Assembly (NCBI GenBank): GCA_964431605.1
Contig: CAYSLH010000001.1
Location: forward strand, 22,719-86,718
Direction of reading: 5' to 3'
DNA length: 64,000 nucleotides
Origin: an uncultured Myxococcales bacterium
Lineage (GTDB): Bacteria > Myxococcota > B64-G9
A model generated the notes under the pieces. That model was not told where the DNA came from and searched no databases. It worked only from the letters and a program-made list of their open reading frames with translations. Position 1 is the stretch's first letter, and each line of letters begins with the position of its first letter. Of this stretch, positions 41,400 to 64,000 are shown piece by piece. The translations under genes were made by a program, and so were the position numbers.

Positions 41400-41438
41400 G
41401 GCGTCACCTCTATTGCACTTCGGACGACAAAACAACAT

Positions 41439-43032: not shown

Positions 43033-43044
43033 AGATTTCGCCAC

Positions 43045-43321: not shown

Positions 43322-43474
43322 GTGAAGCGGACATATCAACCTAGCCGCCGTAGGCGTACAAGAGTTCATGGTTTTCTTTCGAGGATGTCTACAAGTGGTG
43401 GAAGAAAAGTAATTCAGAGGCGCAGACGTAAAGGCCGCGCAAGGCTTTCCGTCAAGCTTTCTACCAATAAGTGA
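43322..43474 (+). CDS. rpmH: 50S ribosomal protein L34
   Basis: [47 protein letters not shown] start. Confidence 0.9.
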
Positions 43475-43499
43475 GCGAACTTCGAAAGCTCTTCCTGAA

Positions 43500-43847: not shown

Positions 43848-44053
43848 AATGGGTCTTTATTTTCCTTATTAGATTGTACCAGCTGTTGATTTCTCCTCTT
43901 TTAGGACAAAGGTGCAGATTCTATCCAAGTTGTTCCCATTATTCTTTAGAGAGCCTTCAAAGATATGGTTTTTTCAAAGGAAGTTATTTGGCTGTCAAGC
44001 GGATAGTTCGTTGTCATCCATGGAATTCTGGTGGCAATGATCCCGTCCCTTGA
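43844..44053 (+). CDS. yidD: Membrane protein insertion efficiency factor YidD
   Basis: [36 protein letters not shown] signature. ATGA overlap with the rnpA stop. Confidence 0.85.
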
Positions 44054-44090
44054 TTCATAAAGATTTTTCCAACTTCACAATGGTGCTTCG

Positions 44091-45785: not shown

Positions 45786-45802
45786 AAAGAAAAGGTGTGA
45801 AC

Positions 45803-46492: not shown

Positions 46493-46756
46493 AAAAGAAA
46501 AAAAAGATCGATCGGTTGAGATCCGCAGCACTGGTGAAAGTCAAATATCTCATGAACACCGGAAAAGCGGATGACGGTTTTCGTATCATTTTTGATGGGG
46601 TACTCAAGGATCTCAAGCTGAGTAGTAAAGAGGTAGATGATTTCATTGAAAAGAACAGGGAAAATCTGACCAGGCAATGCATGGAAGATGGATAATAATT
46701 TTCAGATAGTACTCAAACTCGTAATAGCCTGAATTTCTGTGATAAGAGCCTGAATG

Positions 46757-46770
46757 TTTCCACGTGGAAC
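46757..46770. promoter_or_regulatory. Near-palindrome TTTCCACGTGGAAC 22 bp upstream of mnmG start
   Basis: 13/14 match to the perfect palindrome at 48659-48674. Confidence 0.4.
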
Positions 46771-46791
46771 GTTTTATGACGTGGTAGATCA

Positions 46792-48645
46792 ATGGATCTG
46801 GATTTTGACATAGTAGTTGTTGGTGCTGGTCATGCCGGGTGTGAAGCTGCTCTTGCAGGAGCGAGAACAGGTAAAAGGGTGGCTTTGATAACGTTCGACA
46901 TCGACAGGATAGCAGAGATGTCATGTAATCCTGCAATTGGAGGCCTAGGCAAGAGTCAGATAGTAAGGGAGATAGATGCACTGGGGGGCGAGATGGGAAA
47001 GGCCGCGGATAATGCGGCGATTCATTTCAGAAGACTAAACGAAAGTAGGGGACCAGCAGTAAGAGCCAGGCGTGTTCAGTGCGACATGGGTGACTATCAT
47101 TCTTATATGTTGTCCAAATTGAAAAGCTCTGAAGGAATCCATATCATCGAGGGAGAAGTCAAAGGACTGCTGGTGGAAAACAATGCAGTAAAAGGGGTTA
47201 CTTTTTCATCGAAGGATTTTCCTGAAAAGAGTCTTGCATGTAAAACCGTTGTTTTGACGACAGGAACTTTTCTAAAAGCCATCATGTATACCGGATTGGT
47301 ATCATCCAAGGGAGGGAGGGTAAAAGATGGTAGTGCCGATAATCTCAGCGCGAACCTTGAACAACTGGGACTTTCTCTAGGAAGGCTAAAAACCGGCACT
47401 CCTCCACGACTTGACTCATCTTCCATAGATTTCAGTGAAATGGAAGCACAATATTCTGACAATGAATTACTACCATTCTCCCATGAATCCCAAACTCTTG
47501 ATTCCCGAAGAATGACTGCTGTATGCTACATGACTCGTACCAACGAGGCTGTTCATATTTCCATAAGAAAAGGACTTGACGATTCTCCTCTCTATACCGG
47601 CGTCATCAAGGGTCTTGGACCAAGGTATTGTCCATCCATAGAAGACAAGGTCGTGAGATTTCCTCAAAGATCATCCCACCAGGTAGTCCTCGAGCCAACA
47701 GATGCCACTGGAAAAATAATATACCCCAATGGGATCTCAACAAGTTTGAACCTAGATGTACAAAAAGAGATGGTCAATTCCATACCGGGTCTCGAGAAGG
47801 CAAAGATTATCGTACCTGGTTATGCCGTCGAATATGATTTCGTCTATCCCACTCAGCTATTGCATTCCCTGATGGTCAAAAAGATAAAGGGCATTTTTTT
47901 AGCCGGACAGATAAATGGAACCAGTGGATACGAAGAGGCAGCAGGACAGGGACTTTTAGCGGGAATAAACGCCTCTTTTTTCATAGATGGGGAAAAACCT
48001 CTCGTTCTTGCGAGACATGAGGCATACATAGGTGTGATGATAGATGATTTAGTTACCAGAGGGACAAAAGAGCCCTACAGGATGTTTTCCTCGAGAGCGG
48101 AGTTCAGATTATTGTTGAGAGAGGATAATGCCCTTGAGAGATTAAATCCCTATGCGAAAGCCGTCGGTCTCGTTCCCAGAGAAATAATTGAGCAACGAAG
48201 TGCCAAACTGCAACATGTTGAAAAAATAAATCAAAAACTTTTGAGCATCAAAAAAGTAGAAAAAGGTGGAAAAAGCACGATCCTTGAAAAAATCCTCCGG
48301 AGACCAGGTGTGTCGGTCGATGAAATACTAGAAGATATTTGTGAACTCGATGCACCCAGAGATGTCAGAGAAATGGTCGAGGTCAAGGTGAAGTACAAAG
48401 GTTATATTGAGCGACAAATCAGGGAAGCAAGGCAGTTGAAAAAAAGAGACGCAAAAAAGATCCCCTTGGATTTTAATTTCGAAGGCCTTTCAGGGCTTTC
48501 ATCCGAATTGCTGGAAAAGTTGAAAAAAAACAGGCCTGCCACGCTGGGCGAGGCCAAGGGGATAGACGGAATCACCCCAGCAGCTTTGATGCTCATTTCA
48601 TTGGAAGTGGATCGAAAAAAAAGAAGAGAAAATAAGAAGTATTGA
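46792..48645 (+). CDS. mnmG: tRNA uridine 5-carboxymethylaminomethyl modification enzyme MnmG (GidA)
   Basis: FAD-binding DVVVVGAGHAGCEAALA and a full-length GidA pattern. Confidence 0.95.
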   Translation: MDLDFDIVVVGAGHAGCEAALAGARTGKRVALITFDIDRIAEMSCNPAIGGLGKSQIVREIDALGGEMGKAADNAAIHFRRLNESRGPAVRARRVQCDMGDYHSYMLSKLKSSEGIHIIEGEVKGLLVENNAVKGVTFSSKDFPEKSLACKTVVLTTGTFLKAIMYTGLVSSKGGRVKDGSADNLSANLEQLGLSLGRLKTGTPPRLDSSSIDFSEMEAQYSDNELLPFSHESQTLDSRRMTAVCYMTRTNEAVHISIRKGLDDSPLYTGVIKGLGPRYCPSIEDKVVRFPQRSSHQVVLEPTDATGKIIYPNGISTSLNLDVQKEMVNSIPGLEKAKIIVPGYAVEYDFVYPTQLLHSLMVKKIKGIFLAGQINGTSGYEEAAGQGLLAGINASFFIDGEKPLVLARHEAYIGVMIDDLVTRGTKEPYRMFSSRAEFRLLLREDNALERLNPYAKAVGLVPREIIEQRSAKLQHVEKINQKLLSIKKVEKGGKSTILEKILRRPGVSVDEILEDICELDAPRDVREMVEVKVKYKGYIERQIREARQLKKRDAKKIPLDFNFEGLSGLSSELLEKLKKNRPATLGEAKGIDGITPAALMLISLEVDRKKRRENKKY

Positions 48646-48652
48646 TATTTTC

Positions 48653-49357
48653 ATGAAATGTTCCACGTGGAACAGGATAAGTGCCGTGGCGAATTTTGAA
48701 GAATTTCTCAAACGTGGTGCTGATATACTTGGCATCGAATTACAATATGATGCAATACAGCGCATCAAGATTCATAGGGAACTACTTTTGAAGTGGGCGC
48801 CAAAAGTAAACCTGACGACAGTTTTAGATCCTAAGTCCATGGCAGAAAGGTTATACCTTGATTCAGGAATTCTCCTTCCTAAAATTTCATCTCGAAAAAC
48901 TTTACATGATGTTGGAACAGGAGCGGGTTTTCCAGGGCTTGTTCTTAAAGCACTAAATCCCAAGTTGGATGTGACATTGACAGAGGCAAGAAGAAAGAGG
49001 GTCTCTTTTCTAAAAACAGTTGCAAGACAGATGGGACTCCATGATGGACTGACCATTAGATGGAGCAGATTGGGATGGGAGAAGGGGGAAGAAAAAGTTA
49101 AAAACAAATTTTGGGACGAAGTAGTGTCCAGGGCCACCTTTCCCCCGGATCTCTGGATAGAGGCGGGGAAAAATTTATTGGCTCCAGGATCACGTCTTTG
49201 GGTCATGGCAGGTCAACCCCATGCACAGGGTGATGATTCTCTTAATTGGAAAAACGAGGCGGATAAGAACCATCTTGTCTTAGAGTCACAGGAAGTTTAT
49301 CACTTACCTTTCTGTAAAAAAACCAGGTGGCTTGTGAGCTTTCGCAGAAGCTTGTAA
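48653..49357 (+). CDS. rsmG: 16S rRNA (guanine527-N7)-methyltransferase RsmG (GidB)
   Basis: SAM-binding DVGTGAGFPGL and a GidB core. Confidence 0.85.
   Translation: MKCSTWNRISAVANFEEFLKRGADILGIELQYDAIQRIKIHRELLLKWAPKVNLTTVLDPKSMAERLYLDSGILLPKISSRKTLHDVGTGAGFPGLVLKALNPKLDVTLTEARRKRVSFLKTVARQMGLHDGLTIRWSRLGWEKGEEKVKNKFWDEVVSRATFPPDLWIEAGKNLLAPGSRLWVMAGQPHAQGDDSLNWKNEADKNHLVLESQEVYHLPFCKKTRWLVSFRRSL
48659..48674. promoter_or_regulatory. Perfect 16 bp palindrome TGTTCCACGTGGAACA at codons 3-8 of rsmG
   Basis: Seen in sequence. CACGTG core. A sibling site lies upstream of mnmG. Confidence 0.45.
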
Positions 49358-49448
49358 CTTCTGTTTTTGATTGGATCAACGTATTCAGTTGTGTTACAAA
49401 AACAATCCTGTTTTGGACTGATTATTTCGAAAAAGGATATTTTTCTAA

Positions 49449-50213
49449 ATGGGTCGAATCATCGCCATAGCGAATCAAAAAGGTGGAGTAGGAAAGACCA
49501 CTACAGCCATCAACCTGGCAGCTTCTCTGAGTGTGGCTGAGCGTCCCGTGTTGTTGGTGGATTGTGATCCACAGGCAAACGCTACAACAGGCTTGGGTTT
49601 TTCCAGGGATGAGCAGCGGAGAAATCTTTATCACGTGTTGTTGAATGAATCTACCATCGACGAAGTGACAGTATTGACGGACCTGGAAAATCTCAGACTA
49701 GTTCCTTCTGATTCAAATCTCATCGGTGCGGAAGTAGAACTTGTGGACATGCAAGGAAGGGAGAGTCTCCTGAAAAATGCCCTTGAGAAAGTCAAGGATC
49801 AGTACGAATATATTATTCTAGACTGCCCCCCGTCGTTGGGTCTTTTGACCATCAATGCGTTAGCCGGTGCGGATGGAGTGCTTGTTCCTTTACAATGTGA
49901 ATATTACGCACTGGAGGGTTTGAGTTCCCTGGTTCAGACCATAGAGATGATTCGAAAAGGCTTGAATGATTCTCTTGAGATCGATGGGATTCTTTTGACT
50001 ATGTTTGATGTTCGAAACGCAATTTCTCATTCCGTGGCAAATGAAGTTAAATCGTATTTTAAAGGAAAGGTGTTCAATTCGACCATACCTAGAAACGTCA
50101 GGCTTTCCGAAGCTCCTTCGTTTGGTAAGCCGGTCATGTTATATGATCCGAGATCTCGGGGATCAGAAAGCTATCTTGCTTTGGCCAAAGAAATTCTATC
50201 ATCATCTAACTAG
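49449..50213 (+). CDS. parA: Chromosome partitioning ATPase ParA (Soj)
   Basis: Deviant Walker A KGGVGKTT. Confidence 0.9.
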   Translation: MGRIIAIANQKGGVGKTTTAINLAASLSVAERPVLLVDCDPQANATTGLGFSRDEQRRNLYHVLLNESTIDEVTVLTDLENLRLVPSDSNLIGAEVELVDMQGRESLLKNALEKVKDQYEYIILDCPPSLGLLTINALAGADGVLVPLQCEYYALEGLSSLVQTIEMIRKGLNDSLEIDGILLTMFDVRNAISHSVANEVKSYFKGKVFNSTIPRNVRLSEAPSFGKPVMLYDPRSRGSESYLALAKEILSSSN

Positions 50214-50233
50214 TTGTTTTATAAGGTGTTATA

Positions 50234-51112
50234 ATGTCATCAGCTAAAAGAAAGGCTCTGGGAAAAGGACTCAAGGCTCTTATTCCTGTAAACGAAGATA
50301 AGACATCTTCAAAGCAGCCCAGCGGGTTGTTTCAATGCCCCATAGACAAGCTCGTGCCTAACGAAAATCAGCCAAGGCAGAGTTTTGATAACTCCAAGCT
50401 GGAAGACCTAACCGAAAGCGTCAGGTCAAAGGGCGTGATACAACCGCTCGTAGTAAGAGCATTGGGTGATGGAATGTTTCAGGTCGTTGCTGGTGAACGA
50501 AGATGGAGAGCGTCGAAATTGGCAGGTCTGGAAAAAGTTCCAGTCGTGGTAAAGAACCTGTCTGGAACGGAGATGTTGGAAATTGCGCTCATAGAAAATA
50601 TTCAGCGCGAGGATCTGAATCCTTTGGAAGAAGCGGAGGCGTACCGCCAGCTCATCGAGGAGCATGGCTTGACCCAGGAAGGTTTGGCGAAACGGGTTGG
50701 AAAACAAAGGTCGTCTGTTGCCAACGCTCTTCGGCTTTTGAAGCTGCCGCAGGAGGTTCAAAAATTTTTACTTACGGGAGAACTATCCATGGGACACGCC
50801 AGGGCAATCCTTGGCGCTCAGGGACAGAGTAAACAAAAGGCTCTGGCAAGAAAGGTGGTTAGAGACGGACTGAGCGTTCGGGCTTGTGAGGAGATGGTTA
50901 GAAGCGCAACATCTCAAAAGAGCGGGCCCAAGCGAGGTTCTTTGAAACAATCAGTTCTCAACGTTACACAGAGGAGATTGGTGGAGGAGTTGCAGCGACG
51001 TTTTGGTACCAAGGTAGACTTGCAAAAGGGTCGAAAGGGTGGAAAATTGATAATACATTATTTTTCTGATGGAGAACTGGATAGGATTCTTCAGGTAATC
51101 CAGGGGAATTAA
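50234..51112 (+). CDS. parB: Chromosome partitioning protein ParB (Spo0J)
   Basis: ParB box GERRWRA and HTH (GLTQEGLAKRVGKQRSSVANALRLL). Confidence 0.9.
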   Translation: MSSAKRKALGKGLKALIPVNEDKTSSKQPSGLFQCPIDKLVPNENQPRQSFDNSKLEDLTESVRSKGVIQPLVVRALGDGMFQVVAGERRWRASKLAGLEKVPVVVKNLSGTEMLEIALIENIQREDLNPLEEAEAYRQLIEEHGLTQEGLAKRVGKQRSSVANALRLLKLPQEVQKFLLTGELSMGHARAILGAQGQSKQKALARKVVRDGLSVRACEEMVRSATSQKSGPKRGSLKQSVLNVTQRRLVEELQRRFGTKVDLQKGRKGGKLIIHYFSDGELDRILQVIQGN

Positions 51113-51114
51113 AA

Positions 51115-51624
51115 TTGGCTTTATTTAAAAAAGAAAAGACCGAACCAGAACTAACGGTGGAAAAAGTCCAAATTCCGTCTGGCCAAAATAAAAACAAGGC
51201 CGTCACCAGGAGGGAGCATACCGTGAGTCTCAAGACCGACGAGATAACAACGATTCTTGGAAAAGGATCCGAGTTCGAGGGCAAATTGAATTTTGAAGGA
51301 ACGTTACGGATCGAGGGAGTTTATTCCGGAGAAATCATCTCCGACTCGGTTCTGGTGGTTGGTGAGGGAGCCAAGGTAAATGCTGAAATCGATATTGGTA
51401 CCATTGTGGTCAATGGTCAGGTTACTGGAAACATCCGAGCAAAGCAGGGTGTGGAAATTCGTGGTTCAGGACGCGTGGTAGGTAATATCGAAACACCGTC
51501 TCTCTATATTGAAAAGGGAGTGGTTTTCGATGGAACATGTAAAATGGGCGGTGCGGGAAAAAAGGAATCGTTCATAAAAGAAGCCAAAGCAGCACCAAAG
51601 ACAGAAGAGAAGGAAAAAAAATAG
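51115..51624 (+). CDS. Bactofilin (DUF583) cytoskeletal protein
   Basis: Beta-helical bactofilin repeats (VVGEGAKVNAEIDIGTIVVNGQVTGNIRAKQGVEIRGSGRVVGNIE). TTG start 3 nt after the parB stop. Lys/Glu-rich C-terminal tail. Confidence 0.8.
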   Translation: MALFKKEKTEPELTVEKVQIPSGQNKNKAVTRREHTVSLKTDEITTILGKGSEFEGKLNFEGTLRIEGVYSGEIISDSVLVVGEGAKVNAEIDIGTIVVNGQVTGNIRAKQGVEIRGSGRVVGNIETPSLYIEKGVVFDGTCKMGGAGKKESFIKEAKAAPKTEEKEKK

Positions 51625-54898: not shown

Positions 54899-56359
54899 TT
54901 ACAAGCATACTGGTAACATTACCATGTGAGAGGTGCTTTGGCAGGTTTTTCCATCAGGGCATGGGTGTTCAATATCGCAGTATGCCCTGCAGTAATATTC
55001 AAAAGGATCGGAAGTATTTGGTTCCAATACACAATCAAGACCAGGAGCACAAAATTGGGTCATATCACTACAATCATCGCCTTCCTGCAGAGAACCAGGC
55101 ATCCAGCATTCGGTGGTTCCAGCCTCTGGGTCTGAGTAGTAGCATGCAGATTCTTCACCAGAGCATCCAGTCTGTAAAATTGGATCGCATCCGGGTCTGC
55201 ATACACCCCATGAGGTACCCAGTTCTGGCCAGGCCCAAACACAGTGTTGATCAGGCGAGGTACATTCCGATGCATTTTCGCAGTAACTTACGCAGGTTCC
55301 ATCAAGACAGATCAATCCAGCCTGGCAATCGGAAGAAGAGCAGTCTCCCCCTTCCTGTACATTCCCTGCAGGCAGACAGAAAAACACTCCGAAGTTTGAC
55401 ATGGTGCAGCGCTCGCCCTGTTCGCAGCCTTCAGCAGGTGGTTCACACGTGGCACAATGGGCTGTGCCGTCCTGAGGTTGCTGGCAAAACTGGTTTGATT
55501 CGGTACAATCTTGGGAGTCCCGCCAATATTTACAACTGTCAGCTCCTAGTTCACAACGTTGGATGGTAAACAAGTTACATCTTAGAGCATCCACCGTATC
55601 ACATTCATCGGTGCAGCCTTGCTGGCAGACAGGAACATCGCCTGAGTCGTCACAGTGTTTGTTGTCAGCTGCACAGTCAGTGGTATCGGCCCAATCAAGA
55701 CAACCCGAGTTGTCAGCGGTACATGTCTGGATAACATCACCTGAACACCTGAGGTCTCCTGCGGTATCACACTTGTTTACACATTCCTGGTTACAGACAG
55801 GAACATCGCCCGAGTCGTCACAATGTTCGTTGTCAGCAGCACAGTCAGTAGTGTCCGACCAGTCCAAACAGCCGGCGTCATCAGCGGCGCATGTCTGGAT
55901 AACATCCCCCGAGCACCTGAGGTTCCCTGCGGTATCACACTTGTTTACGCATTCCTGGCTACAGACAGGAACATCGCCCGAGTCGTCACAGTGTTTGTTG
56001 TCAGCTGCACAGTCAGTGGTGGTGGCCCAAACAAGGCAACCATCCTGACCTTCTTTGCAGGTTTGCAGCTTATCTTCAGAACATCGTGTTTCACCCTGTT
56101 TGTTACACATGTCCACACAGACACATTGACCCGAAGAACAAGTACGATTTCCATCACACGAATCTGTTTGTGTCCACACCAGGCAACCGTCTGCGTTCAT
56201 GGAACATGTCTTGACGGATTTCAGGTCTGAGGAACATTTCGTCTCATCTATTTTTTCGCAAGGGTTTTGTATTCCCAGACATTTGTCTTGCTCGTTGCTT
56301 GTACCACAGGAGATTTCTAAAAATGAAAAACCAACGAACAGGAGAATAGACAGTTTCAT
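54899..56359 (-). CDS. Cysteine-rich repeat lipoprotein (56 aa repeats CVNKCDTAGxLRCSGDVIQTCxADxxGCLDWxDTTDCAADNxHCDDSGDVPVC)
   Basis: GGAGG RBS then ATG at 56359. Lipobox FLEISC. At least 4 Cys-rich repeat units, and a C-terminal Cys-rich domain. Confidence 0.65.
   Translation of the reverse strand: MKLSILLFVGFSFLEISCGTSNEQDKCLGIQNPCEKIDETKCSSDLKSVKTCSMNADGCLVWTQTDSCDGNRTCSSGQCVCVDMCNKQGETRCSEDKLQTCKEGQDGCLVWATTTDCAADNKHCDDSGDVPVCSQECVNKCDTAGNLRCSGDVIQTCAADDAGCLDWSDTTDCAADNEHCDDSGDVPVCNQECVNKCDTAGDLRCSGDVIQTCTADNSGCLDWADTTDCAADNKHCDDSGDVPVCQQGCTDECDTVDALRCNLFTIQRCELGADSCKYWRDSQDCTESNQFCQQPQDGTAHCATCEPPAEGCEQGERCTMSNFGVFFCLPAGNVQEGGDCSSSDCQAGLICLDGTCVSYCENASECTSPDQHCVWAWPELGTSWGVCRPGCDPILQTGCSGEESACYYSDPEAGTTECWMPGSLQEGDDCSDMTQFCAPGLDCVLEPNTSDPFEYYCRAYCDIEHPCPDGKTCQSTSHMVMLPVCL
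55628..56035 (-). repeat. In-frame 168 bp tandem repeats (about 2.4 copies at DNA level; copies start at 55628, 55796, 55964)
   Basis: Units align with only scattered substitutions. Each encodes one 56 aa Cys-rich module. Confidence 0.85.
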
Positions 56360-56416: not shown

Positions 56417-57916
56417 TCAATCCCTCATGGAAAAAATGGTAAATACATGATCATCGACCTTAGCGCAGAAAGCCTTATGGTGTTGGTTTTCGACCAGTAC
56501 TTCACAATTGTCTCCAGCAATTTGGATAACCTGGATCAAATCGAATGCTTTTGCAAGGCTTATATCCAGGGCCTTGGCTGCTGCCTCTTTTACCGTCCAA
56601 ACTCGGACGGCAGCTTCAGTGGCGCCTAATACTGATTTTGAAACCAGTTCTTGTTCTTTCTTGCTAAGAAATAACCTTGAACTCCTGATCACTTTTTCCG
56701 AGAGCATTTCCACGTCGATCCCGATGGGGTATGGGCTGGAGACGGCAATTGCAAAGCGAGGATCATGAGATGCAGCACAGTACCTGGCAGAATCATCTGA
56801 AGATGATAAGATTGGATGAACAAGATCTTCGGCAAGGGTCTCGATTTTCGAACCAGGAGTGCTCCAGTCATCAGATAGCTGTCGTGTCAGAAGTTTCAAG
56901 GCTATCCTGGCACTTCCAAAATCTCTGGCCCTTTTAGGTCCCAAATTACTCCAACGTTTTTTTTCATGGCTCGTAAATATGTAATCATAAAAATCGCACA
57001 TGGAATCCAGGTCCAGGACTGTCAATCCGGTACACACATCTCGCAACCTGGCGAGGGGATCTTCAAGAGAGTCTTTTCGTATCCACTCAGCGGGAGTGAT
57101 CCTTCCAGACGAAACATCCCTGAACTCTGTGTCCATGCATGCTTCTGCCAGGATGCCATCTTTGCGGAAGATGAAGATGTGGAAAAAGAGAGTTTCTCCT
57201 TTTTTCCCTGCAGGAAGGATTCGGCACCAGTATTTTTCACCTGTTTTGCAGGGTGAGTTTACAAACCTCTCCCCGTATCCCACGGGAAAGGTCAGCAATC
57301 CTTCGTACCTTTGTCCCCAGGCGCAAGCTAAGTGGAATGCTCCATCGAGGACGAAAACATTGCCTAGTGGGCCCCAAGGTGTGCGATGTTCGGCCGCGAA
57401 AATTTTCGCCACGGCTCCTGCCTCAGATAGAAAAACAGGTCCGGTAACATTTTGAAAAGAAGGTCCAAATGGAACCAGATCCTTATAGAGTTTTTGTGAC
57501 GAAAACCTTATTCCCACGCCCTCCAGGGCGACAGCCCTTTCTTTGAGAAGGTCAACAGGATCATGAGTACTCGCCTTAGTGCTGGAACCAAAACTTACTT
57601 CAACATGCTTCAGTGTTCTGCTAATTCCTGTTTTTCCAGCTTTTGTGTGAGAGAGCAGATTAGCCTTGATTGCATTTTTAGTTGGATGCAACTCCACAGA
57701 AGCTTTTACAATTGAGGATTCGGGAGGCAGGGGTAGAAACCGGTTGAATCTGGCATTGTGTGAAAACAAGACATTCGGTGGATTTGCGATATCTGACGCA
57801 CAGGTGGCCAAGTATTGAATTGATTCAACCGCTGGAAGAATGGATTTCCCCTCGAATTTATGATCCCTCAAATAAGGGGAGTTGGGGATGTCCAAAGGAA
57901 TTTTTTTTTGGTTCAT
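56417..57916 (-). CDS. Fusion protein: N-terminal PKS-type double-hotdog dehydratase-like domain + C-terminal AcpS/Sfp-type 4'-phosphopantetheinyl transferase
   Basis: HxxxGxxxxP motif (HKFEGKSILPAV) and downstream DxxxH (LDGAFHLA) typical of PKS DH. C-terminal PPTase motifs GIDVE and WTVKEAAAK. ATGA overlap with the upstream thioesterase. Confidence 0.65.
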   Translation of the reverse strand: MNQKKIPLDIPNSPYLRDHKFEGKSILPAVESIQYLATCASDIANPPNVLFSHNARFNRFLPLPPESSIVKASVELHPTKNAIKANLLSHTKAGKTGISRTLKHVEVSFGSSTKASTHDPVDLLKERAVALEGVGIRFSSQKLYKDLVPFGPSFQNVTGPVFLSEAGAVAKIFAAEHRTPWGPLGNVFVLDGAFHLACAWGQRYEGLLTFPVGYGERFVNSPCKTGEKYWCRILPAGKKGETLFFHIFIFRKDGILAEACMDTEFRDVSSGRITPAEWIRKDSLEDPLARLRDVCTGLTVLDLDSMCDFYDYIFTSHEKKRWSNLGPKRARDFGSARIALKLLTRQLSDDWSTPGSKIETLAEDLVHPILSSSDDSARYCAASHDPRFAIAVSSPYPIGIDVEMLSEKVIRSSRLFLSKKEQELVSKSVLGATEAAVRVWTVKEAAAKALDISLAKAFDLIQVIQIAGDNCEVLVENQHHKAFCAKVDDHVFTIFSMRD

Positions 57917-58419
57917 TGTTTAGCGGATTTTTCAGTTATGGGATTTGGGAATGTCTCCCAGGTTTTTACCGTAATGGGATCCACCGCCGTTGGCTTTCCC
58001 TTTTCGTTCAGAGCGCAATGAAGAGTATGTCCAATACAAACCAATTGGTTAGTCTCTGCGTGGATGATGACATATTCGAACTTGACCCGAACTCTCTCCA
58101 GATCGGCTGGCCTGGTGTGAATGAGCATGGGGCTGTCATATTTCAGTGGAAGGAAGTATTTCAATCCCAGGTCAACGATGGGATAGATGTAACCTGAGTC
58201 TTCTACCTGAGAGTATGGAAATCCTATGTCCCTCATCAACGAAGCGCGTCCCAACTCGAAGTACCTGAGATAATTTGCATGATATACGATTCCAGACCTG
58301 TCCGTGTCAGCGTATAGCACGCGATTGAAAACTTGATGGTATACCAAGCCAGTGGTTTTATCTTTAACAAACCTCTTGTCGCCGTTATGGGTCACAGGTA
58401 CAAAAGGAGGAGGTCGCAT
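57913..58419 (-). CDS. Hotdog-fold acyl-CoA/acyl-ACP thioesterase (4HBT/YbgC-like)
   Basis: YADTDRSGIVYHANYLRYFELGR matches the 4HBT catalytic region. 168 aa. Confidence 0.7.
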   Translation of the reverse strand: MRPPPFVPVTHNGDKRFVKDKTTGLVYHQVFNRVLYADTDRSGIVYHANYLRYFELGRASLMRDIGFPYSQVEDSGYIYPIVDLGLKYFLPLKYDSPMLIHTRPADLERVRVKFEYVIIHAETNQLVCIGHTLHCALNEKGKPTAVDPITVKTWETFPNPITEKSAKQ

Positions 58420-58421
58420 TT

Positions 58422-59687
58422 TTATACACCTTTGAATATTACGCAGCAGTTGGTGCCGCCGAATCCAAACGAATTGGACAAGGCAATCTCAACATTCGCT
58501 TTCCGTGGTTTGTTGGGCACCACATCAATGTCGGAAAGAGAAGGATCTTGCAAGTGATTGACCGTGGGTAGAATTATACCTTTTCTCATTCCCTCGATGG
58601 TCAAAGCGGCTTCAATGGCGGCCGAGGCACCTAGGGTATGGCCAAGCATGGACTTATTGGACGAGACAGGAAGGTTTTCCAGGTGTGGACCAAAAACCTC
58701 CCTGAGGCAATTGGCTTCTGTGGAGTCACCTCTTGGTGTGGATGTTCCATGGGCGTTTACGTAGTTCACATCTGAAGGAGAGATATTCGCGTCATCCATA
58801 GCGTCTCTCATGGCCTTTATGATGGTAGGAGCGTTGGGTTTGGTGAAATGATATGCGTCCGATGTCCACCCGATGCCCAAAACTTCGGCCTTCGGTTCTA
58901 ATCCATGAGCCTTTAGGGCATCTTCAGAAGCCAGGAGCACCACACCTGCGCCTTCGCTGAGCACGAATCCCTTTCTGTCAGAGGAAAAGGGGCGCGATGC
59001 CTTCGTTGGATCATCTACTGCCCTGTCACCTTCCTTTATTTTTATGGTAGCGCCCATGTTTGCAAAACCGTGGATTATCTCGGGGAGAATGGGTGTGTCC
59101 ACGCCTCCTGCCAACACGAAGTCCTGGTCTCCGTCCCGAATCAATCTGGCTCCTACTCCAATGGCATGATTGCCGGACGCGCAGGCTCCTTGAGGAGAAA
59201 AATTGAGTCCCTGGAATCCCAGGAGCATTCCCGCTTTTCCAGCTGGTAAATTCCCACAGAGGTTCGGCAGAAGGTATGGGCTGACCCGGTTGGGGCCCTG
59301 GTGTTCGAGAGCTTCCACGGCCGCCCGGTATGCATCGTGACCATTGAGGGCGGAGCCGATGAGGGAGGCTGTTCTTGGTGCTATGTCCGGGGTGATTTCC
59401 AACTTGGCGTCAGCAAGGGCATCCTTACAAACAGCCACGGTCAACAGGACAAAAGAAGCGTTCCAATTATAGACTTCTTTTTGTGAGGTGAACTCTTCGT
59501 CCAAAGGATCCCAATCAGGGATTTCCCCCACAACGTCGCACGGGCTTTTCACCTTGCACCTTGTAACTTTTCTGAAACCGGCCTTTGCTTTCATGGCATT
59601 TTGCCAGGTTGTCTGAAAATGCCGCCCAAGTGGAGTGGCGACAGCATATCCGACTACGAAAACTCTTCTGTTCAAAGGCGCCCTCAT
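58422..59687 (-). CDS. Beta-ketoacyl-ACP synthase (FabF/KASII-like, Cys-His-His triad present)
   Basis: Active-site GACASGNHAIG, His motifs NAHGTSTPRGD and MLGHTLGAS, C-terminal FGFGGTN. Confidence 0.85.
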   Translation of the reverse strand: MRAPLNRRVFVVGYAVATPLGRHFQTTWQNAMKAKAGFRKVTRCKVKSPCDVVGEIPDWDPLDEEFTSQKEVYNWNASFVLLTVAVCKDALADAKLEITPDIAPRTASLIGSALNGHDAYRAAVEALEHQGPNRVSPYLLPNLCGNLPAGKAGMLLGFQGLNFSPQGACASGNHAIGVGARLIRDGDQDFVLAGGVDTPILPEIIHGFANMGATIKIKEGDRAVDDPTKASRPFSSDRKGFVLSEGAGVVLLASEDALKAHGLEPKAEVLGIGWTSDAYHFTKPNAPTIIKAMRDAMDDANISPSDVNYVNAHGTSTPRGDSTEANCLREVFGPHLENLPVSSNKSMLGHTLGASAAIEAALTIEGMRKGIILPTVNHLQDPSLSDIDVVPNKPRKANVEIALSNSFGFGGTNCCVIFKGV

Positions 59688-59720
59688 TGGGCTTCTCCTG
59701 CAAGCGTTATGGAGGATGAA

Positions 59721-61010
59721 TTATGCCACCGGGCCAAGAACCACACAAGCATTGCATCCACCGAATCCAAAAGCATTTTTTAGAACCCAGCGTGGTTCAT
59801 ACTCCACCGCATGGTCAAAAACATTAACTAACCCAAGTTCCTTGTCTGGACTAAGATTGATGGTGGGGGGCAGTGTTTTTCTTTCCATGGATTTTTGCGC
59901 CATCACTAATTCTATGGCGCTCGAAGCGCCCATGCAGTGACCAATGAGCGATTTATTTGCCGTAATGATTGGATGATTTGAACCAAAGAGCTCTAATATG
60001 CTTTTTGCTTCAACCGAATCTCCTACCTTCGTGGATGCGGCATGGGCGTTTATGGCACTGATGTCAGATGGGCCTATGCCGGCATGTTCAATTGCTTGAG
60101 CCATGCATCTTGTGACAGTGACTTGGTTTGGCGCCACGAAATGATGGGCATCAGAAGTCATGGCCCATCCTGCAACGGTTGCTAGTGGTGTCAGGGAGTG
60201 TTCTTTTGCAAAGTTTTTGCTACAGATTATTATGGCTGCCGCTCCTTCGGATATTACAAAACCTCTGCGATTGGAAGAAAAGGGGCGACTGGCTGAAACC
60301 GGCGGCTCAGGTTGGTCTTTTTTTGTCCTGTACGCTCCGTTCATGGTGGCAAATCCTGCCACGATGGGTTCCACCAACGGGAAATCCACTGCCCCGCAAA
60401 TTGCCACGTCTGCCATGCCTGCCTGGATGAACATGGCTCCGGTTATTAGAGATGTGCTTCCAGTGGCACATGCGGTAATGGATGTGGTGATGGGTCCGGT
60501 GGCTCCGGAAAGAATGGAGACTTTTCCCGCAACCATGTTAATGCATGAATTTGGATTGACGAATGGATGTGGAAGTTTTCCCTTTTCTCTCAGTTGTCTG
60601 TCTGCGAAAAGAACAGCGTCGAGACCACCGATAGCGGTAGAAAAGGTGGTGGCCACTCTAGGTGAAATCTCTGGGCTGATTTCCAGCTTGGCTTGTTTCA
60701 AAGCTCGATGAACCACGAGAAGGGAGTGTTTGAATACTGGAGAAAACCAGTGAGCCATCTTGCGTGGCTTGAGGAATTCGTATGAACTGGTATCAATATC
60801 CGGCACCTGTCCTGCAATGGTCACAGGAAAAGTTTCAGGGAGCGTAAACCGGGTCAATGGCCCAATACCACTTTTACCTTCCTCGGCATTGTTTATCTGC
60901 TCTTCGATCTGTGTTCCCAATGGGGTGAGCATATCCATGCCCACTATGACAGGACGATTATCCATAAGAAAAAGTAGCCTACCAGGGGAGGAACCTGTAT
61001 AGCTTGGCAA
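59721..61010 (-). CDS. Second beta-ketoacyl-ACP synthase paralog (active-site Cys retained, so not a CLF)
   Basis: TACATGSTS (Cys), NAHAASTKVGD, LIGHCMGAS, FGFGGCN. Start uncertain (60962 or 61010); overlaps the rSAM gene end. Confidence 0.8.
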   Translation of the reverse strand: MPSYTGSSPGRLLFLMDNRPVIVGMDMLTPLGTQIEEQINNAEEGKSGIGPLTRFTLPETFPVTIAGQVPDIDTSSYEFLKPRKMAHWFSPVFKHSLLVVHRALKQAKLEISPEISPRVATTFSTAIGGLDAVLFADRQLREKGKLPHPFVNPNSCINMVAGKVSILSGATGPITTSITACATGSTSLITGAMFIQAGMADVAICGAVDFPLVEPIVAGFATMNGAYRTKKDQPEPPVSASRPFSSNRRGFVISEGAAAIIICSKNFAKEHSLTPLATVAGWAMTSDAHHFVAPNQVTVTRCMAQAIEHAGIGPSDISAINAHAASTKVGDSVEAKSILELFGSNHPIITANKSLIGHCMGASSAIELVMAQKSMERKTLPPTINLSPDKELGLVNVFDHAVEYEPRWVLKNAFGFGGCNACVVLGPVA

Positions 61011-61977
61011 ACATTTCGTAAACGGTGATCCAGTTTTGGAGATCTTTTGTCGATTGCATGTGGGCGCGTTTGTTTACCATCACCCAACTCATATGTGCCG
61101 CACCGTCCATGCAGGTCGAGCAGTCTCTTGTTTGAGAGGTACAACAGCGGTGAGTGGTTTGAAGGTCAGATGCCCATCTGATGAATCGTATGAGGCGTTT
61201 GGGCTGCGGATCCCTCGTATCCCAGTTAATGGATACGGAGGGACACTCTTTCCATCCGAACTTTCTGCCCAGCATGGTCTGGGTGGTGAGTACTTCATGA
61301 TAGTAGTGCGAAGAAATGACGGTCCGGGGATACTTGATCAACATCTCGTCCATTTCTTCCCTTGCCTGTTTGAGTTGGTCTTGTGTCCAACTAAAGCCAT
61401 CCACTCCTTCGTCGTTGGAAAGAAGCTGCATGTGCACTTTCAAACCGCAGTCGTCGATCCGTTTTACTATGGGTTCGATGGAACCGAGTTGTCTGGGAGA
61501 AATGGTAAACAGGTAGTAAGTGTAGTCATCACCCTCGTAATTTTTGGAAGATATGGCAAACGTGTCTTTTCCCCTGAGCTTTTTTTCCACTTCGGGATCT
61601 CCCCAAAGAGAGATACCCACCATCATGTCGGGAAACTTTTCCCTGTCTACTTTGATGAGCCCGTTGGTGGCACAATATGTTGGCAACCTATCGTAAAAAG
61701 CCGCCACACGATCCAGATACAGGGTTGGCTCTCCTCCGATCAGAATTGCCAGGTTGACACCGCGTTGGACTTCTTTATCTATGAATTCTTTCCATTTTTC
61801 CACGTCGTCCTGTTCTTGTGCAGCCTTGTGTTCACCAGAAGAGAAGAAAAAGCAACCCTTGCAGCGAAGGTTGCACTTGTTGGTCACATCGTAGATGGAT
61901 GAACGAATATTCAGTTTGGAAATTCGCTTGTATCTTTCATACCACTCTTTGTCCAAAAGAGAGCTAACAGTTTTCAT
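60979..61977 (-). CDS. Radical SAM protein (CNLRCKGC) with Cys-rich C-terminal region
   Basis: CxxxCxxC at about residue 37, then GGEPTL. C-terminal CC..C..C cluster (RCCTSQTRDCSTC). AGGTGA RBS. Confidence 0.8.
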   Translation of the reverse strand: MKTVSSLLDKEWYERYKRISKLNIRSSIYDVTNKCNLRCKGCFFFSSGEHKAAQEQDDVEKWKEFIDKEVQRGVNLAILIGGEPTLYLDRVAAFYDRLPTYCATNGLIKVDREKFPDMMVGISLWGDPEVEKKLRGKDTFAISSKNYEGDDYTYYLFTISPRQLGSIEPIVKRIDDCGLKVHMQLLSNDEGVDGFSWTQDQLKQAREEMDEMLIKYPRTVISSHYYHEVLTTQTMLGRKFGWKECPSVSINWDTRDPQPKRLIRFIRWASDLQTTHRCCTSQTRDCSTCMDGAAHMSWVMVNKRAHMQSTKDLQNWITVYEMFAKLYRFLPW

Positions 61978-62027
61978 CTGGTCACCTGTTTGTATCTTGT
62001 TTCCTTCGAGTTTAATTTTATCATCGG

Positions 62028-63143
62028 CTACACGGGTACGAGGTCGAATCCGGGAGGAGGTACCAATTGCGATTGGAGATTCTCATCCTTTTCGTATCCC
62101 ATCACCCATACGGCCAAGTAAGTATCTACATAGTCGAGCCACGCTTTGAAATGTTGCGGGTCTTTTGCATGTCCATGGAGCCTGGCGGTCACAACTGCTG
62201 AACCAGCAGCATAATGCCTGCAATCGGCACAATCCGTATCAGGAACACAGCAGGCTACACCTCGATCCCAGTTCAGATCGGTCCTGTATTGTCTGAAAGA
62301 TCTCCCCAACCCTATGTGGGTGGATGGATTCATGCGGGGATAAGGACATTTATACAGAGCATGCAAGCCCTTTCGATGTGTATGAACCACGGCGGAATAT
62401 GGAGAAAAGAGCACGTTTTCTGGGTAGCGTTTCATGAGTTCCATCATGGAGTTTCTGGTCGCAACCAGTGATTGTTCATCGTGCCTAAGTGGTCCATCAT
62501 ATCCCACAGTAGAAGAGAACATGTTGAATGTCACTTTGAAATCATGTTGTGCCAACAGTCGCACTACCTCATCAGCTTCTGCAATGTTTTCCCTCGTATA
62601 GGTAAAGACGAAAACTGCCCTGTCATCTCCCTCGTAGTTTTCCATCTGCCTGACGAGGAGATCCTTCGCTCGTCTGATCTTCTGGCTGGTCTCGTCGTTT
62701 CCCCACACGGAGATGTGAATCTTGTATCCTACGGACCGGGGGATGTGCTTTACTCCATTTGTCGCAATACTTCCCAGAGGCATTTCTTCATAACACACAT
62801 CGAGCAGGTCCGGCACCAGGGCTGGTTCGGCTCCAGCCAGTACCACATACGTGATACCTCTGGCTTTTTCCTGTCTCATGAGAGCGCGCCAGGATTCAGT
62901 CTCCCTGTTCTCCTTGGCGAACTGCTTTTCTCCTTCGAAATAATAACAGCCGTCACAACGAATGTTACACCGGTTGGACATGTCGTATGTAGATTCTCTC
63001 AGAAAAAAGTATTTTCGGACTTTTTCCCATCTTCGGCGGACAGGGTCTTGCTCGAGCAACTGGGAGAATTTCCACTTTTGTCCAGCTTTGCCCGGGGGCC
63101 TAAAGTCCAACAATTCGCCTGTAGCTTGAGAGGATCCAGACAT
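62028..63143 (-). CDS. Radical SAM protein paralog (CNIRCDGC) with Cys-rich C-terminal region
   Basis: CxxxCxxC and AGAEPAL. C-terminal CCVPDTDCADC. Paralogous to the 60979-61977 gene. Start set at the first ATG (the track begins at TTG 63209). Confidence 0.75.
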   Translation of the reverse strand: MSGSSQATGELLDFRPPGKAGQKWKFSQLLEQDPVRRRWEKVRKYFFLRESTYDMSNRCNIRCDGCYYFEGEKQFAKENRETESWRALMRQEKARGITYVVLAGAEPALVPDLLDVCYEEMPLGSIATNGVKHIPRSVGYKIHISVWGNDETSQKIRRAKDLLVRQMENYEGDDRAVFVFTYTRENIAEADEVVRLLAQHDFKVTFNMFSSTVGYDGPLRHDEQSLVATRNSMMELMKRYPENVLFSPYSAVVHTHRKGLHALYKCPYPRMNPSTHIGLGRSFRQYRTDLNWDRGVACCVPDTDCADCRHYAAGSAVVTARLHGHAKDPQHFKAWLDYVDTYLAVWVMGYEKDENLQSQLVPPPGFDLVPV

Positions 63144-63196
63144 TTGGTTTTTACCTGGATAACGCTGTTTGTGACATATTTGGATTGACTGAAACG

Positions 63197-63433
63197 TCAG
63201 TCCATACAATCTTTGATGTACTTGGCGATGAGACGGACGTTCTTGAGTTTCGGATAATCATCTTCGTCGATGGTTATGGAGTATTCGTCCTGCAGCACAA
63301 GCACCACCGCAGTCAGATCCATGGAGTCGATTCCCAATTCATCGACCAGGTCCAGGTTCTTGTCAAAAGATTCTGGAGTGACATCTTCCAGTTTGAGTTC
63401 TTCAATGATAATTTGCGCTACCCGGTTTTCCAT
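63197..63433 (-). CDS. Acyl carrier protein
   Basis: 78 aa, LGIDSMDL phosphopantetheine attachment motif, acidic helical protein. Confidence 0.8.
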   Translation of the reverse strand: MENRVAQIIIEELKLEDVTPESFDKNLDLVDELGIDSMDLTAVVLVLQDEYSITIDEDDYPKLKNVRLIAKYIKDCMD

Positions 63434-63623
63434 GGTGTCTGATTCTAGCTTCATCGCAGTTGCTTCCATTGCTATACCTCTCCGTGTATCAGTTACCAAT
63501 TCGTTGATTTCCCCGTAACGTTCTCGCCTAACATCAATCTAGTCACCCTGTCAAGCTATTCACGTTTTGTACATTTGACGGCAATAGCATGTTTTTATTT
63601 CAAAGGAGACATCTGGTCCCTTC

Positions 63624-63989
63624 TCAGCCTACTTCCATCCTGCCGTCACCAACCCTTTCTCCTTGTCTGTTGATCTCGAACTTCACTGAATATAGCGAGT
63701 TTTTTTCCGATTCGTGGGTGATTTCACACCGGACTTCAATGTGTTGACCGGGCAGGACAAGACTCCTGATCCTGCTTTTGGGTATGGTCTTCAGATGCAG
63801 GTTGGGCTTCTTTGTCGAAAGTCTGACCAGGTTCAGTACGATATAGATGATGGCCAGCGCGGGAAGAATGGGTTTTTGGGGAAAATGCCCGTCAAACCAG
63901 GGAGAATCAGAAGAAAGGCTCAAGTCGGTCGAAAACGAGTTTTTCCCAACTTCTTTGATTTTCATGTCAGGTTGCCAGGAAGATGTCAT
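63624..63989 (-). CDS. FabZ/FabA-like hotdog beta-hydroxyacyl-ACP dehydratase
   Basis: FDGHFPQKPILPALAI catalytic His motif. About 115-120 aa. Confidence 0.7.
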   Translation of the reverse strand: MTSSWQPDMKIKEVGKNSFSTDLSLSSDSPWFDGHFPQKPILPALAIIYIVLNLVRLSTKKPNLHLKTIPKSRIRSLVLPGQHIEVRCEITHESEKNSLYSVKFEINRQGERVGDGRMEVG

Positions 63990-64000
63990 GGCTTGATTCT

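Follow-up and report, generated by a model that had tools for sequence, protein, structure and literature searches.

Introduction

Kuenenia carries type II fatty-acid synthase (FASII) gene clusters with a pair of radical S-adenosylmethionine (rSAM) enzymes, Kuste3342 and Kuste3343, which have close homologues (DP1853 and DP1855) in Desulfotalea psychrophila; similar clusters were noted in Geobacter and Pelobacter, and no ladderanes were found in Desulfotalea (Rattray 2009, PMC2649909). Such clusters are reported by antiSMASH as 'ladderane' biosynthetic gene clusters in Desulfobacterota, Myxococcota and other non-anammox phyla (PMC9902471, PMC11968836), and rSAM-containing FASII clusters stand in the literature without a known product (PMC2649909, PMC4790861, PMC9902471). 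When the anammox genes were expressed heterologously, no polyunsaturated products appeared, nor were the two rSAM proteins detected (PMC4790861). Anammox Cluster I (kuste3603–3608), the candidate now favoured for ladderanes, comprises amxACP, amxFabZ, a phytoene-dehydrogenase homologue, the amxFabF2/amxFabFmut heterodimer and a B12-dependent rSAM enzyme (bioRxiv 10.64898/2026.05.19.726425). In a 2026 review, only ladderanes and the product of Jaw5 are named as ketoacyl lipids that are proposed to be rSAM-modified (PMC13459092). Here, we describe a related operon at one end of a 64,000-nucleotide stretch of DNA from an uncultured Myxococcales bacterium (contig CAYSLH010000001.1, positions 22,719 to 86,718). 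This whole stretch is referred to as the window, and coordinates follow its numbering.

The Kuenenia (kuste3335–3352) and Desulfotalea clusters resemble the locus in the window in that all contain a FabZ-like dehydratase, an acyl carrier protein (ACP), two adjacent rSAM enzymes and several FabF paralogues. The order described for these clusters, FabZ-ACP-[FabG]-rSAM-rSAM...FabF (PMC4790861), is also that of the window, this likeness being drawn from published gene order. An initial annotation of the window, made from the sequence alone, had named such a synteny as a ladderane candidate in anammox bacteria that is also seen in some deltaproteobacteria, in agreement with Rattray 2009 (PMC2649909). 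We consider it fairly probable that the locus represents, in minimal and stand-alone form, a widespread and conserved cassette that provides a private type II FAS/polyketide synthase (PKS)-like pathway making a specialised lipid, while any particular chemistry is put forward with much less confidence.

Gene content of the locus

Eight consecutive open reading frames (ORFs) with the same direction on the minus strand span positions 56417–63989. All eight genes of the initial annotation are present, and their domain assignments hold in Pfam and NCBIfam scans, the latter also providing the equivalog cut-offs used throughout. In the direction of transcription, the genes are as follows.

63624–63989, minus strand: single-hotdog dehydratase (DH), ApeI/FabZ-like, 121 amino acids (Pfam FabA 4.7e-6, ApeI-like 7.2e-6, NCBIfam FabZ 6e-9)
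63197–63469, minus strand: acyl carrier protein ACP2, 90 amino acids (PP-binding 7.7e-9)
62028–63143, minus strand: radical SAM enzyme rSAM-A, 371 amino acids (Pfam Radical_SAM 1.1e-6; CX3CX2C)
60979–61977, minus strand: radical SAM enzyme rSAM-B, 332 amino acids, paralogue of rSAM-A
59721–60965, minus strand: FabF-like ketosynthase KS1, 414 amino acids (ketoacyl-synt N and C domains)
58422–59687, minus strand: FabF-like ketosynthase KS2, 421 amino acids, 37% identical to KS1
57913–58419, minus strand: hotdog 4HBT/YbgC-type thioesterase (TE), 168 amino acids (4HBT_2 7.5e-14)
56417–57916, minus strand: fusion of a dehydratase and a 4'-phosphopantetheinyl transferase (DH::PPTase), 499 amino acids (ACPS 2.2e-12)

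The catalytic residues of both ketosynthases, both dehydratases, the thioesterase and the PPTase are conserved family-wide, as is the ACP serine. The GFGG motif and the Cys, His, His and Lys residues are intact in KS1 and KS2 and likewise in 96–100% of 64–75 orthologues (C166, H308, K338 and H343 of KS1 in 98–100% of 75; C169, H313, K345 and H350 of KS2 in 96–100% of 64), which bears out the Cys-His-His triad that had been read in both enzymes. Among solved structures in the PDB, canonical FabF is nearest to both. The motif W31-F-x-G-H35-F-P-x-x-P40 of DH is invariant in 47 orthologues, ACP2 keeps G-I-D-S49-M-D-L with the DSM serine (69 orthologues), and D38-T-D40-R-S...V-Y-H47 of TE is invariant in 58 orthologues. 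TE scores 87.8 on the TIGR00051 YbgC/FadM family, above the cut-off of 68.7. The N-terminal half of DH::PPTase (residues ∼6–270) is a PKS-type double-hotdog dehydratase whose family profile matches the complete DH domains of CurF, CurK and PksJ, and residues ∼300–490 match Sfp/AcpS, corresponding to an Sfp-type PPTase at residues ∼300–499. Most homologues carry PF14765 (PS-DH) plus PF01648, and the motifs of the dehydratase (D18-H19...P28 and D191-xxx-H195) and of the PPTase (GxDxE and WxxKEAxxKA) are conserved. The module thus brings its own carrier protein and its own PPTase, as the initial annotation had it.

Distribution and conservation of the eight-gene core

An rSAM-B orthologue was found in at least 588 species genomes in a scan of one genome per species (185,579 species), mostly metagenome-assembled genomes (MAGs) labelled Desulfobacterota, Spirochaetota or Myxococcales. 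The proteins of the window were compared with the ORFs of the best 80 of these loci. In essentially every sufficiently long locus of the 80, the genes follow the order DH-ACP2-rSAM-A-rSAM-B-KS1-KS2-TE-DH::PPTase on the same strand, and the window has the same eight co-directional genes in identical order, with DH as the first gene of the core. Six of the eight genes occur in 84–100% of eligible loci, and DH and the PPTase fusion, which diverge most, are detected in 80–88%. The median intergenic gaps of the family are 18–73 bp, and rSAM-A is always directly preceded by ACP2 with a median gap of 18 bp. The eight-gene arrangement is far beyond chance.

The closest genome among the matches listed is a MAG labelled Myxococcales (94% identity for rSAM-B, with genome orthologues spanning 75–94%). 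The best 80 otherwise comprise MAGs labelled Myxococcota, Syntrophus/Smithella/Syntrophaceae, Desulfobacteraceae, Desulfatitalea, Spirochaetota and Leptospirales together with Desulfosarcina widdelii PP31, and a Desulfobulbaceae MAG (L056) also has the core. Searches of protein databases returned 1882 relatives of rSAM-B. The homologue lists hold the best 120 per query, all at least 68% identical; for rSAM-B these 120 are all ∼332 amino acids long and 75–100% identical, and the relatives of rSAM-A behave alike, with ∼70–75% identity among the matches listed. In a library of 1.8 billion representatives at 50% identity, all full-length rSAM-B proteins fall into a single one (P0121, 76% identical to the window protein). 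With its 332 amino acids, an identity above the 50% required and the full Cys pattern, rSAM-B of the window belongs to the family of this representative. The next full-length representatives reach at most 36% identity to rSAM-B, and only 564 representatives attain E<1e-3.

The proteins of the core differ strongly in their identity to those of the window. It is highest for rSAM-B, which is always 332 amino acids long and ∼77% identical across groups, followed by rSAM-A (∼70%), KS2 (64–73%), ACP2 (60–82%), KS1 (∼60%) and TE (∼58%), and drops to ∼35% for the PPTase fusion and ∼30% for DH. With such unequal divergence among the genes of a single operon, the conservation of the rSAM enzymes cannot be put down to recent transfer alone. 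rSAM-A, rSAM-B and their ACP are under exceptional constraint.

Some loci show local departures. A HicAB toxin–antitoxin pair lies upstream of the DH gene in Smithella (L084, 7555–7968), insertions of 2–7.5 kb separate KS1 and KS2 in Spirochaetota MAGs (L009, L016, L017, L042, L055 and L077), and an ORF of 192–291 amino acids with no Pfam match stands between rSAM-A and rSAM-B in L085 and L086.

The cassette is distinct from housekeeping fatty-acid synthesis

The ketosynthases, ACP2 and DH all score well below the models for the primary enzymes. On TIGR03150 (fabF), KS1 and KS2 reach 323 and 392 against a cut-off of 494, ACP2 reaches 36 against the acyl_carrier cut-off of 70 and stays below every acpP equivalog cut-off, and DH reaches 33 against the fabZ cut-off of 155. 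The usual neighbours of a primary FAS locus, plsX, fabH, fabD and fabG, were found neither in the 64-kb window nor on its contig extension (described below); fabI is likewise not found in the 64 kb, and elsewhere in the window there is no fab gene. The cassette is distinct from housekeeping FAS. The initial annotation had placed the locus far from any housekeeping fab genes and had named the primary FAS locus as the finding that would overturn its reading, which does not apply here given the sub-threshold KS and ACP scores and the lack of other fab genes in the window. Its core reading, in which a FAS/PKS-like module, dedicated and ACP-dependent, is combined with two paralogous rSAM enzymes, is supported.

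The rest of the window contains a replication-origin region (recF, dnaN, dnaA, yidC, mnmG, rsmG, parAB and bactofilin) and unrelated genes. Within 39169–51624, recF, dnaN and dnaA (41674–43044) are on the minus strand, and yidC, an R3H protein gene, mnmG, rsmG, parA and parB are on the plus strand, with the bactofilin gene directly after parB. The cumulative GC skew has its minimum at ∼40–42 kb; together with the origin genes, this places the cassette ∼13–20 kb from the likely oriC. The G+C content drops from ∼0.50 (1–16 kb) to ∼0.40 (36–46 kb). Also encoded are large proteins, secreted or with repeats, of the sort that is typical of Myxococcota-like genomes: a 1122-amino-acid MopE-repeat/PPC protein (7950–11318), an FG-GAP protein (12222–13718) and a 1935-amino-acid TPR protein (23624–29431). 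A housekeeping LolA gene (1397–2152), the sole one in the window, lies 55 kb away from the cassette and is unrelated to it.

Operon limits and contig extension

The operon continues for ∼2 kb past position 64000, as had been expected. The extension was obtained from an ENA metagenome contig (ERZ27262647 k141_385757, here L001), which encodes rSAM-B and overlaps the end of the window. It adds three genes.

L001 7736–7978, same direction as the operon: second acyl carrier protein (ACP1), 80 amino acids; the last base of its stop codon is window position 64000
L001 6781–7701, same direction as the operon: ABC ATPase
L001 5930–6784, same direction as the operon: polytopic membrane protein with no Pfam match; its stop codon overlaps the ATPase start in an ATGA

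In window numbering, these genes lie at ∼64000–66048 with gaps of at most 35 bp, and the membrane-protein gene is followed by divergent, unrelated genes that include infA. The operon consists of 11 genes over ∼9.7 kb (∼66048–56417). Of the tailoring genes that had been anticipated beyond the window, an ABC exporter is indeed there, but a ketoreductase (KR), an enoyl reductase (ER) and an acyltransferase were found neither in the window cassette nor on the extension. No precursor-peptide-sized gene or recognition element of peptides that are ribosomally synthesised and modified post-translationally (RiPPs) was seen among the gene calls of the extended contig.

Several details of the initial annotation are corrected here. 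The longest-ORF starts assigned to ACP2, rSAM-A and KS1 lie too far upstream, the starts called on the source contig being 63469, 63143 and 60965, respectively. One of the two reported ATGA overlaps is located in the window (TE/PPTase, 57913–57916), but the second joins two genes beyond 64000. Gaps of 50 bp or less were described throughout, which is not correct for the DH-to-ACP spacer of 154 bp. A promoter and terminator scan gave results at chance level (17 versus 14.6 and 16 versus 14.3 expected), and the operon limits therefore rest on spacing and strand only.

On the strand of the PPTase gene, and 57 bp downstream of it, a Cys-rich protein of ∼486 amino acids is encoded (54899–56359, minus strand). 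It has an N-terminal hydrophobic segment and three tandem repeats of ∼40 amino acids (CVNKCDTAG.LRCSGDVIQTC...GCLDW.DTTDCAADN.HCDDSGDVPVC), with no Pfam or NCBIfam match. It is conserved only in the closest MAG (69%) and is probably not a member of the cassette.

The radical SAM pair

rSAM-A and rSAM-B are paralogues, as first proposed, with 29% identity (E 4e-42). Besides the CX3CX2C motif, rSAM-A has five more conserved cysteines with the motif CC-x6-C-x2-C, and rSAM-B has five extra invariant cysteines (C245, C278, C279, C286 and C289). Each enzyme carries an additional Cys-rich site, which would probably hold an auxiliary Fe-S cluster. A B12-binding domain was not found in either protein with Pfam or NCBIfam.

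Neither enzyme has a curated family in Pfam or NCBIfam, where only generic rSAM matches are obtained. The best NCBIfam matches (NirJ, ScmE, TrsS, AhbC and Tes) reach 24–34 bits against cut-offs of 180–650, and the other finding named as fatal to the initial reading, that the rSAM enzymes are common housekeeping proteins, does not apply. SkfB, BlsE, anSME and SuiB are the nearest PDB relatives of rSAM-B by profile and are among the top ones by fold, where the decarboxylase BlsE ranks first; a close characterised relative was found by neither PDB sequence nor fold search. A literature search likewise revealed no paper that assigns a product or an activity to the cassette, and the earlier suggestion of an uncharacterised family stands. 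With a Tes model score of 24–25 bits against a cut-off of 450, identity with the membrane-spanning lipid synthases Mss and Tes is ruled out on family score (PMC13159169).

In a tree of distant representatives, rSAM-A and rSAM-B form two tight clades; the superfamily that surrounds them is diverse, and the CC...C..C pattern is common to most of its members. Four distant members were examined for their neighbours, and all four are found with carrier-protein machinery. The first adjoins an AMP-ligase, a SnoaL/PP-binding protein and a ketoacyl synthase III (KAS III), the second adjoins a PP-binding protein, and the third lies inside a KS-KS-x-rSAM-ACP-KS-MaoC-KASIII cluster. The fourth is fused to a TubC-type docking domain and an α/β thioesterase and immediately follows a type I PKS module. 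The superfamily is systematically tied to carrier proteins and PKS/FAS enzymes. Because distant relatives adjoin carrier proteins and ACP2 invariably adjoins rSAM-A, the pair most likely acts on carrier-bound, or just-released, acyl chains. It is from this context that we infer tailoring of an acyl chain.

Two of these distant loci deserve description in their own right. In L089 (5187–13523), a sister rSAM enzyme (36% identical to rSAM-B) is part of a KS-KS-(357-amino-acid protein)-rSAM-ACP-KS series with the MaoC dehydratase and KAS III genes on the opposite strand; it looks like a second, unrelated-looking FAS-like system with the same kind of rSAM enzyme. In L090 (8001–10175), the 724-amino-acid TubC_N-thioesterase-rSAM fusion directly follows a 1754-amino-acid type I PKS module and looks like an rSAM-assisted PKS off-loading device.

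Neighbours of the core in other genomes

Larger clusters surround the core in Desulfosarcina widdelii, a Spirochaetes MAG and a Smithella contig. Upstream are an extra ACP and a B12-binding rSAM enzyme (449–450 amino acids), to which some loci add a fused 717-amino-acid KS, a phytoene-desaturase-like oxidoreductase and a polysaccharide-deacetylase/methyltransferase. Divergent genes encode a KR, an ApeP-like DH, LolA and one protein of no assigned family. PlsY is encoded directly downstream, in Desulfosarcina followed by a glycosyltransferase and an MMPL-methyltransferase protein. An AMP-ligase and a membrane protein also occur in these clusters (Desulfosarcina, Smithella and Spirochaetota). 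In one locus, L086, a stand-alone PS-DH precedes PlsY and a PlsC-like acyltransferase. The accessory genes were counted in eligible loci as follows.

Extra ACP: 42/55
B12-rSAM: 40/55
PlsY: 35/51
Fused KS: 24/55
KR: 23/55
LolA: 18/55

In most other genomes, the core is physically linked to glycerolipid acyltransferases (PlsY, in one case PlsC-like) and lipid-trafficking genes. The loci labelled Myxococcales (L002–L007 and L085) have the core alone with an extra ACP, between unrelated genes, and among the loci compared the ABC pair is limited to the window and its closest relative, L002.

A module resembling anammox Cluster I precedes the core in Desulfosarcina (L082, 6336–7986), Spirochaetes (L083, 986–7680) and Smithella (L084, 4724–7305). 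In these non-anammox bacteria, the two candidate 'ladderane' modules of Kuenenia thus stand side by side.

A model for the pathway and its alternatives

In the pathway that we propose, the fused PPTase would convert the ACP or ACPs of the cassette to the holo form, and both intact FabF-like ketosynthases would use malonyl units to initiate and lengthen a chain on ACP2. Priming may occur via decarboxylation of malonyl-ACP, as was shown for the anammox FabF pair (bioRxiv 10.64898/2026.05.19.726425). Malonyl loading and keto-reduction would be borrowed from the primary FAS (FabD and FabG). The ApeI-like and PKS-type dehydratases would give enoyl intermediates, for which the cassette encodes no reducing enzyme. 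rSAM-A and rSAM-B, probably as a pair, would then carry out a radical and probably two-electron-oxidative step on the ACP-bound chain, which could be a ring closure, a C-C cross-link or a desaturation. The hotdog thioesterase would release or proof-read the product. In the organism of the window, the product would be moved by the co-transcribed ABC transporter, while in most other carriers PlsY (at one locus a PlsC-like enzyme) would put it into a membrane glycerolipid. As a tentative suggestion, in which we place somewhat less than even confidence, the pair would perform an undescribed radical reaction on an ACP-tethered acyl group (ring closure, intra- or inter-chain C-C cross-linking or O2-independent desaturation), after which the two ketosynthases would elongate the chain.

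Several points weigh against the proposed pathway. The mechanistic steps all derive from domain content and from context, and the literature gives no product, intermediate or enzyme activity for any member of the cassette. With no KR, ER or malonyl transferase encoded, the pathway must draw on host enzymes that are not seen here. Cultured carriers such as Desulfosarcina are not known to yield unusual lipids tied to the cassette. From Desulfotalea, only acyclic polyunsaturated hydrocarbons were obtained (PMC2649909). The fates implied for the chain differ between the thioesterase, with a free acid, and PlsY, with an acyl-phosphate. The window copy has no PlsY, and the link to membrane lipids is so borrowed from relatives. 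For the rSAM enzymes, there is no SPASM or Twitch match in Pfam, which leaves the number and role of auxiliary clusters uncertain, the structural model has low confidence at the cluster-binding segments (residues 242–290), and the closest relatives by sequence and fold include decarboxylases (NirJ/AhbC-type and BlsE), which would fit a different chemistry.

This different chemistry is radical decarboxylative off-loading, which we regard as unlikely. A chain made by the ketosynthases and dehydratases would be freed as an acid by the thioesterase, and the rSAM pair would remove or oxidatively decarboxylate its carboxyl group to give a hydrocarbon, alkene or ketone, as an anaerobic counterpart of OleT-, UndA- and CurM-type terminal chemistry. 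It is in line with the production of polyunsaturated hydrocarbons by Desulfotalea, which has a similar cluster (PMC2649909). The nearest curated relatives of rSAM-A, NirJ and AhbC, act on carboxylate side chains, BlsE heads the fold matches and one superfamily member is fused to a PKS off-loading thioesterase, all of which favour decarboxylation weakly. However, hydrocarbons of the Desulfotalea type are otherwise explained by the Ole and Pfa pathways, the position of ACP2 beside rSAM-A with the KS genes downstream suggests modification before or during elongation, and PlsY, which follows the cassette in most genomes, and the PlsC-like enzyme of one locus both need an intact acyl carboxyl group. 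An anaerobic route to unsaturated or polyunsaturated chains, or to an outer-membrane polyene resembling an aryl polyene (APE), with the rSAM enzymes as dehydrogenases or accessory proteins, is equally doubtful in our estimation. The Twitch/SPASM enzymes BtrN and anSME are dehydrogenases, and anSME is among the fold matches. Two dehydratases (one of them ApeI-like) are encoded without an enoyl reductase, relatives add ApeP-like DH, KR, LolA, MMPL and glycosyltransferase genes as in APE clusters, and polyunsaturated fatty acids were proposed as products of such clusters by Rattray et al. (PMC2649909). Against this stand the two catalytically intact ketosynthases, which are not a pair of KS and chain-length factor (CLF), the absence of aryl-starter enzymes, and the absence of KR, ApeP, LolA, MMPL and glycosyltransferase from the cassette of the window. 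A polyene route through KS, KR and DH needs no rSAM enzyme, yet the rSAM enzymes are the most conserved proteins of the cassette, and expression of the anammox genes gave no polyunsaturated products, albeit with the rSAM proteins undetected (PMC4790861).

The extreme conservation of rSAM-B and ACP2 across the sampled groups is of a kind more usual for core cofactor enzymes than for secondary metabolism, and would suit a cofactor or a protein-bound prosthetic group made like lipoate or biotin from an ACP-bound short chain by rSAM enzymes, rather than a membrane lipid. Paralogous rSAM pairs are known from cofactor pathways (CofG/H, MqnC/E and AhbC/D), and among the sampled carriers, MAGs and isolates from groups known to be anaerobic predominate. 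We nevertheless find such a product improbable: the neighbours elsewhere are lipid genes (PlsY, PlsC-like, LolA, MMPL and glycosyltransferase) and not genes for cofactor ligation or apoproteins, the two elongating ketosynthases point beyond a short chain, enzymes that insert sulfur or nitrogen are not present and, judging from at least 588 of 185,579 species, most anaerobes would not have the cassette. A genuine pathway to ladderanes, that is to concatenated cyclobutanes, is already largely refuted and seems highly improbable, although this type of synteny was first flagged as a candidate in Kuenenia (PMC2649909) and one proposed iterative route needs ACP, KS, DH and rSAM (PMC10139942). The closest genome is a MAG labelled Myxococcales and the family occurs in hundreds of non-anammox genomes, Desulfotalea has no ladderanes despite its similar cluster (PMC2649909), the B12-rSAM enzyme, phytoene-desaturase homologue and inactive KS of Cluster I (bioRxiv 10.64898/2026.05.19.726425) have no counterpart in the window, and DH and ACP have no special similarity to amxFabZ and amxACP in the PDB. 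There is just as little to be said for a primary FAS locus, or for rSAM enzymes that are unrelated housekeeping proteins or peptide maturases among fab genes. Canonical FabF is the nearest solved structure to the ketosynthases, and rSAM enzymes of the SPASM/Twitch branch are often peptide maturases. But KS, ACP and DH fall short of the fabF, acpP and fabZ cut-offs, the plsX, fabH, fabD and fabG context is not present, in all ∼80 genomes the rSAM genes keep a fixed place between ACP2 and KS1, and neither a precursor-peptide-sized gene nor a RiPP recognition element is among the gene calls of the extended contig; carriers with very large or complete genomes, such as Desulfosarcina widdelii (7.3 Mb), would hold the cassette as an extra cluster.

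A specialised lipid made by a private FAS/PKS-like pathway thus remains our preferred explanation. Clusters of this kind have been listed as "ladderane-like" since 2009. What is new here is that the variable clusters share one eight-gene core, that this core is present in at least 588 species genomes, that the two rSAM enzymes rank among the most conserved proteins to be found across bacterial groups, that their superfamily is tied to carrier proteins and PKS/FAS enzymes, and that in the window, as in its Myxococcales-labelled relatives, the core stands alone. The operon of ∼10 kb, which comes with ACPs, a PPTase, a thioesterase and an exporter, is unusually well suited to heterologous expression and in vitro reconstitution. 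With the cassette solved, thousands of database genes would gain a function and fewer options would be left for ladderane assembly in anammox bacteria, and the product of the cassette might be an unrecognised lipid biomarker of anoxic environments. If the rSAM pair does perform an undescribed reaction on an ACP-bound chain, the cassette would stand for a new class of bacterial lipids from hundreds of mostly anaerobic species and would offer the first tractable entry to the chemistry long suspected behind ladderane-type lipid biosynthesis.

Comparison with known systems

KS, ACP and DH share their folds and catalytic motifs with FabF, AcpP and FabZ of type II FAS, from which the cassette differs in its scores below the equivalog cut-offs and in having its own PPTase, a thioesterase and two rSAM enzymes. 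Other rSAM enzymes of lipid metabolism, namely Tes/GDGT-MAS, Mss, GrsA/B and Jaw5, each consist of a single, larger protein without flanking ACP and KS genes. The cyclopropanase Jaw5, which makes jawsamycin together with the iterative PKS Jaw4, is HemN-like (PMC13459092), and no HemN family is among the best matches of the rSAM enzymes in the window.

With APE and flexirubin clusters, the locus shares two ACPs, an ApeI-like dehydratase (scoring 26.7 against a cut-off of 28.5), a 4HBT thioesterase and the lack of an ER. Further likeness is seen in relatives only, in the form of ApeP-like DH, KR, LolA-like, MMPL and glycosyltransferase genes. APE clusters have no rSAM enzyme and use a KS/CLF pair and an aryl starter (from an ammonia-lyase or a ligase), neither of which is found in the window. 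KR, ApeP and MMPL are not encoded in the window, its only LolA gene is 55 kb away and both ketosynthases are of the active type, which sets the locus apart from APE clusters.

The locus and anammox Cluster I both combine radical SAM chemistry with a FabZ-like DH, an ACP of their own and two FabF homologues side by side, and a Cluster-I-like module (ACP, fused KS and B12-rSAM, with or without the desaturase homologue) adjoins the core in many relatives. The window itself has neither the B12-rSAM nor the desaturase homologue, and the triads of its KS pair are both intact, whereas one partner of the Cluster I pair is inactive (KS/CLF-like). PDB searches with DH and ACP of the window gave no special similarity to amxFabZ and amxACP. 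The locus is not the anammox ladderane Cluster I.

The closest correspondence is with the Kuenenia- and Desulfotalea-type clusters, which occur in anaerobic deltaproteobacteria. The accessory set around the core in relatives is that described for kuste3335–3352, kuste3603–3608 and Desulfotalea (PMC2649909; PMC4790861). Unlike Kuenenia-type clusters, the window and its extension have no FabG, B12-rSAM, phytoene-desaturase homologue, methyltransferase, AMP-ligase, glycosyltransferase or PlsY, and the locus is reduced to the core, a second ACP and the ABC exporter. Compared by their published descriptions, the locus very probably works like, and belongs to, these rSAM-containing FASII-like clusters.

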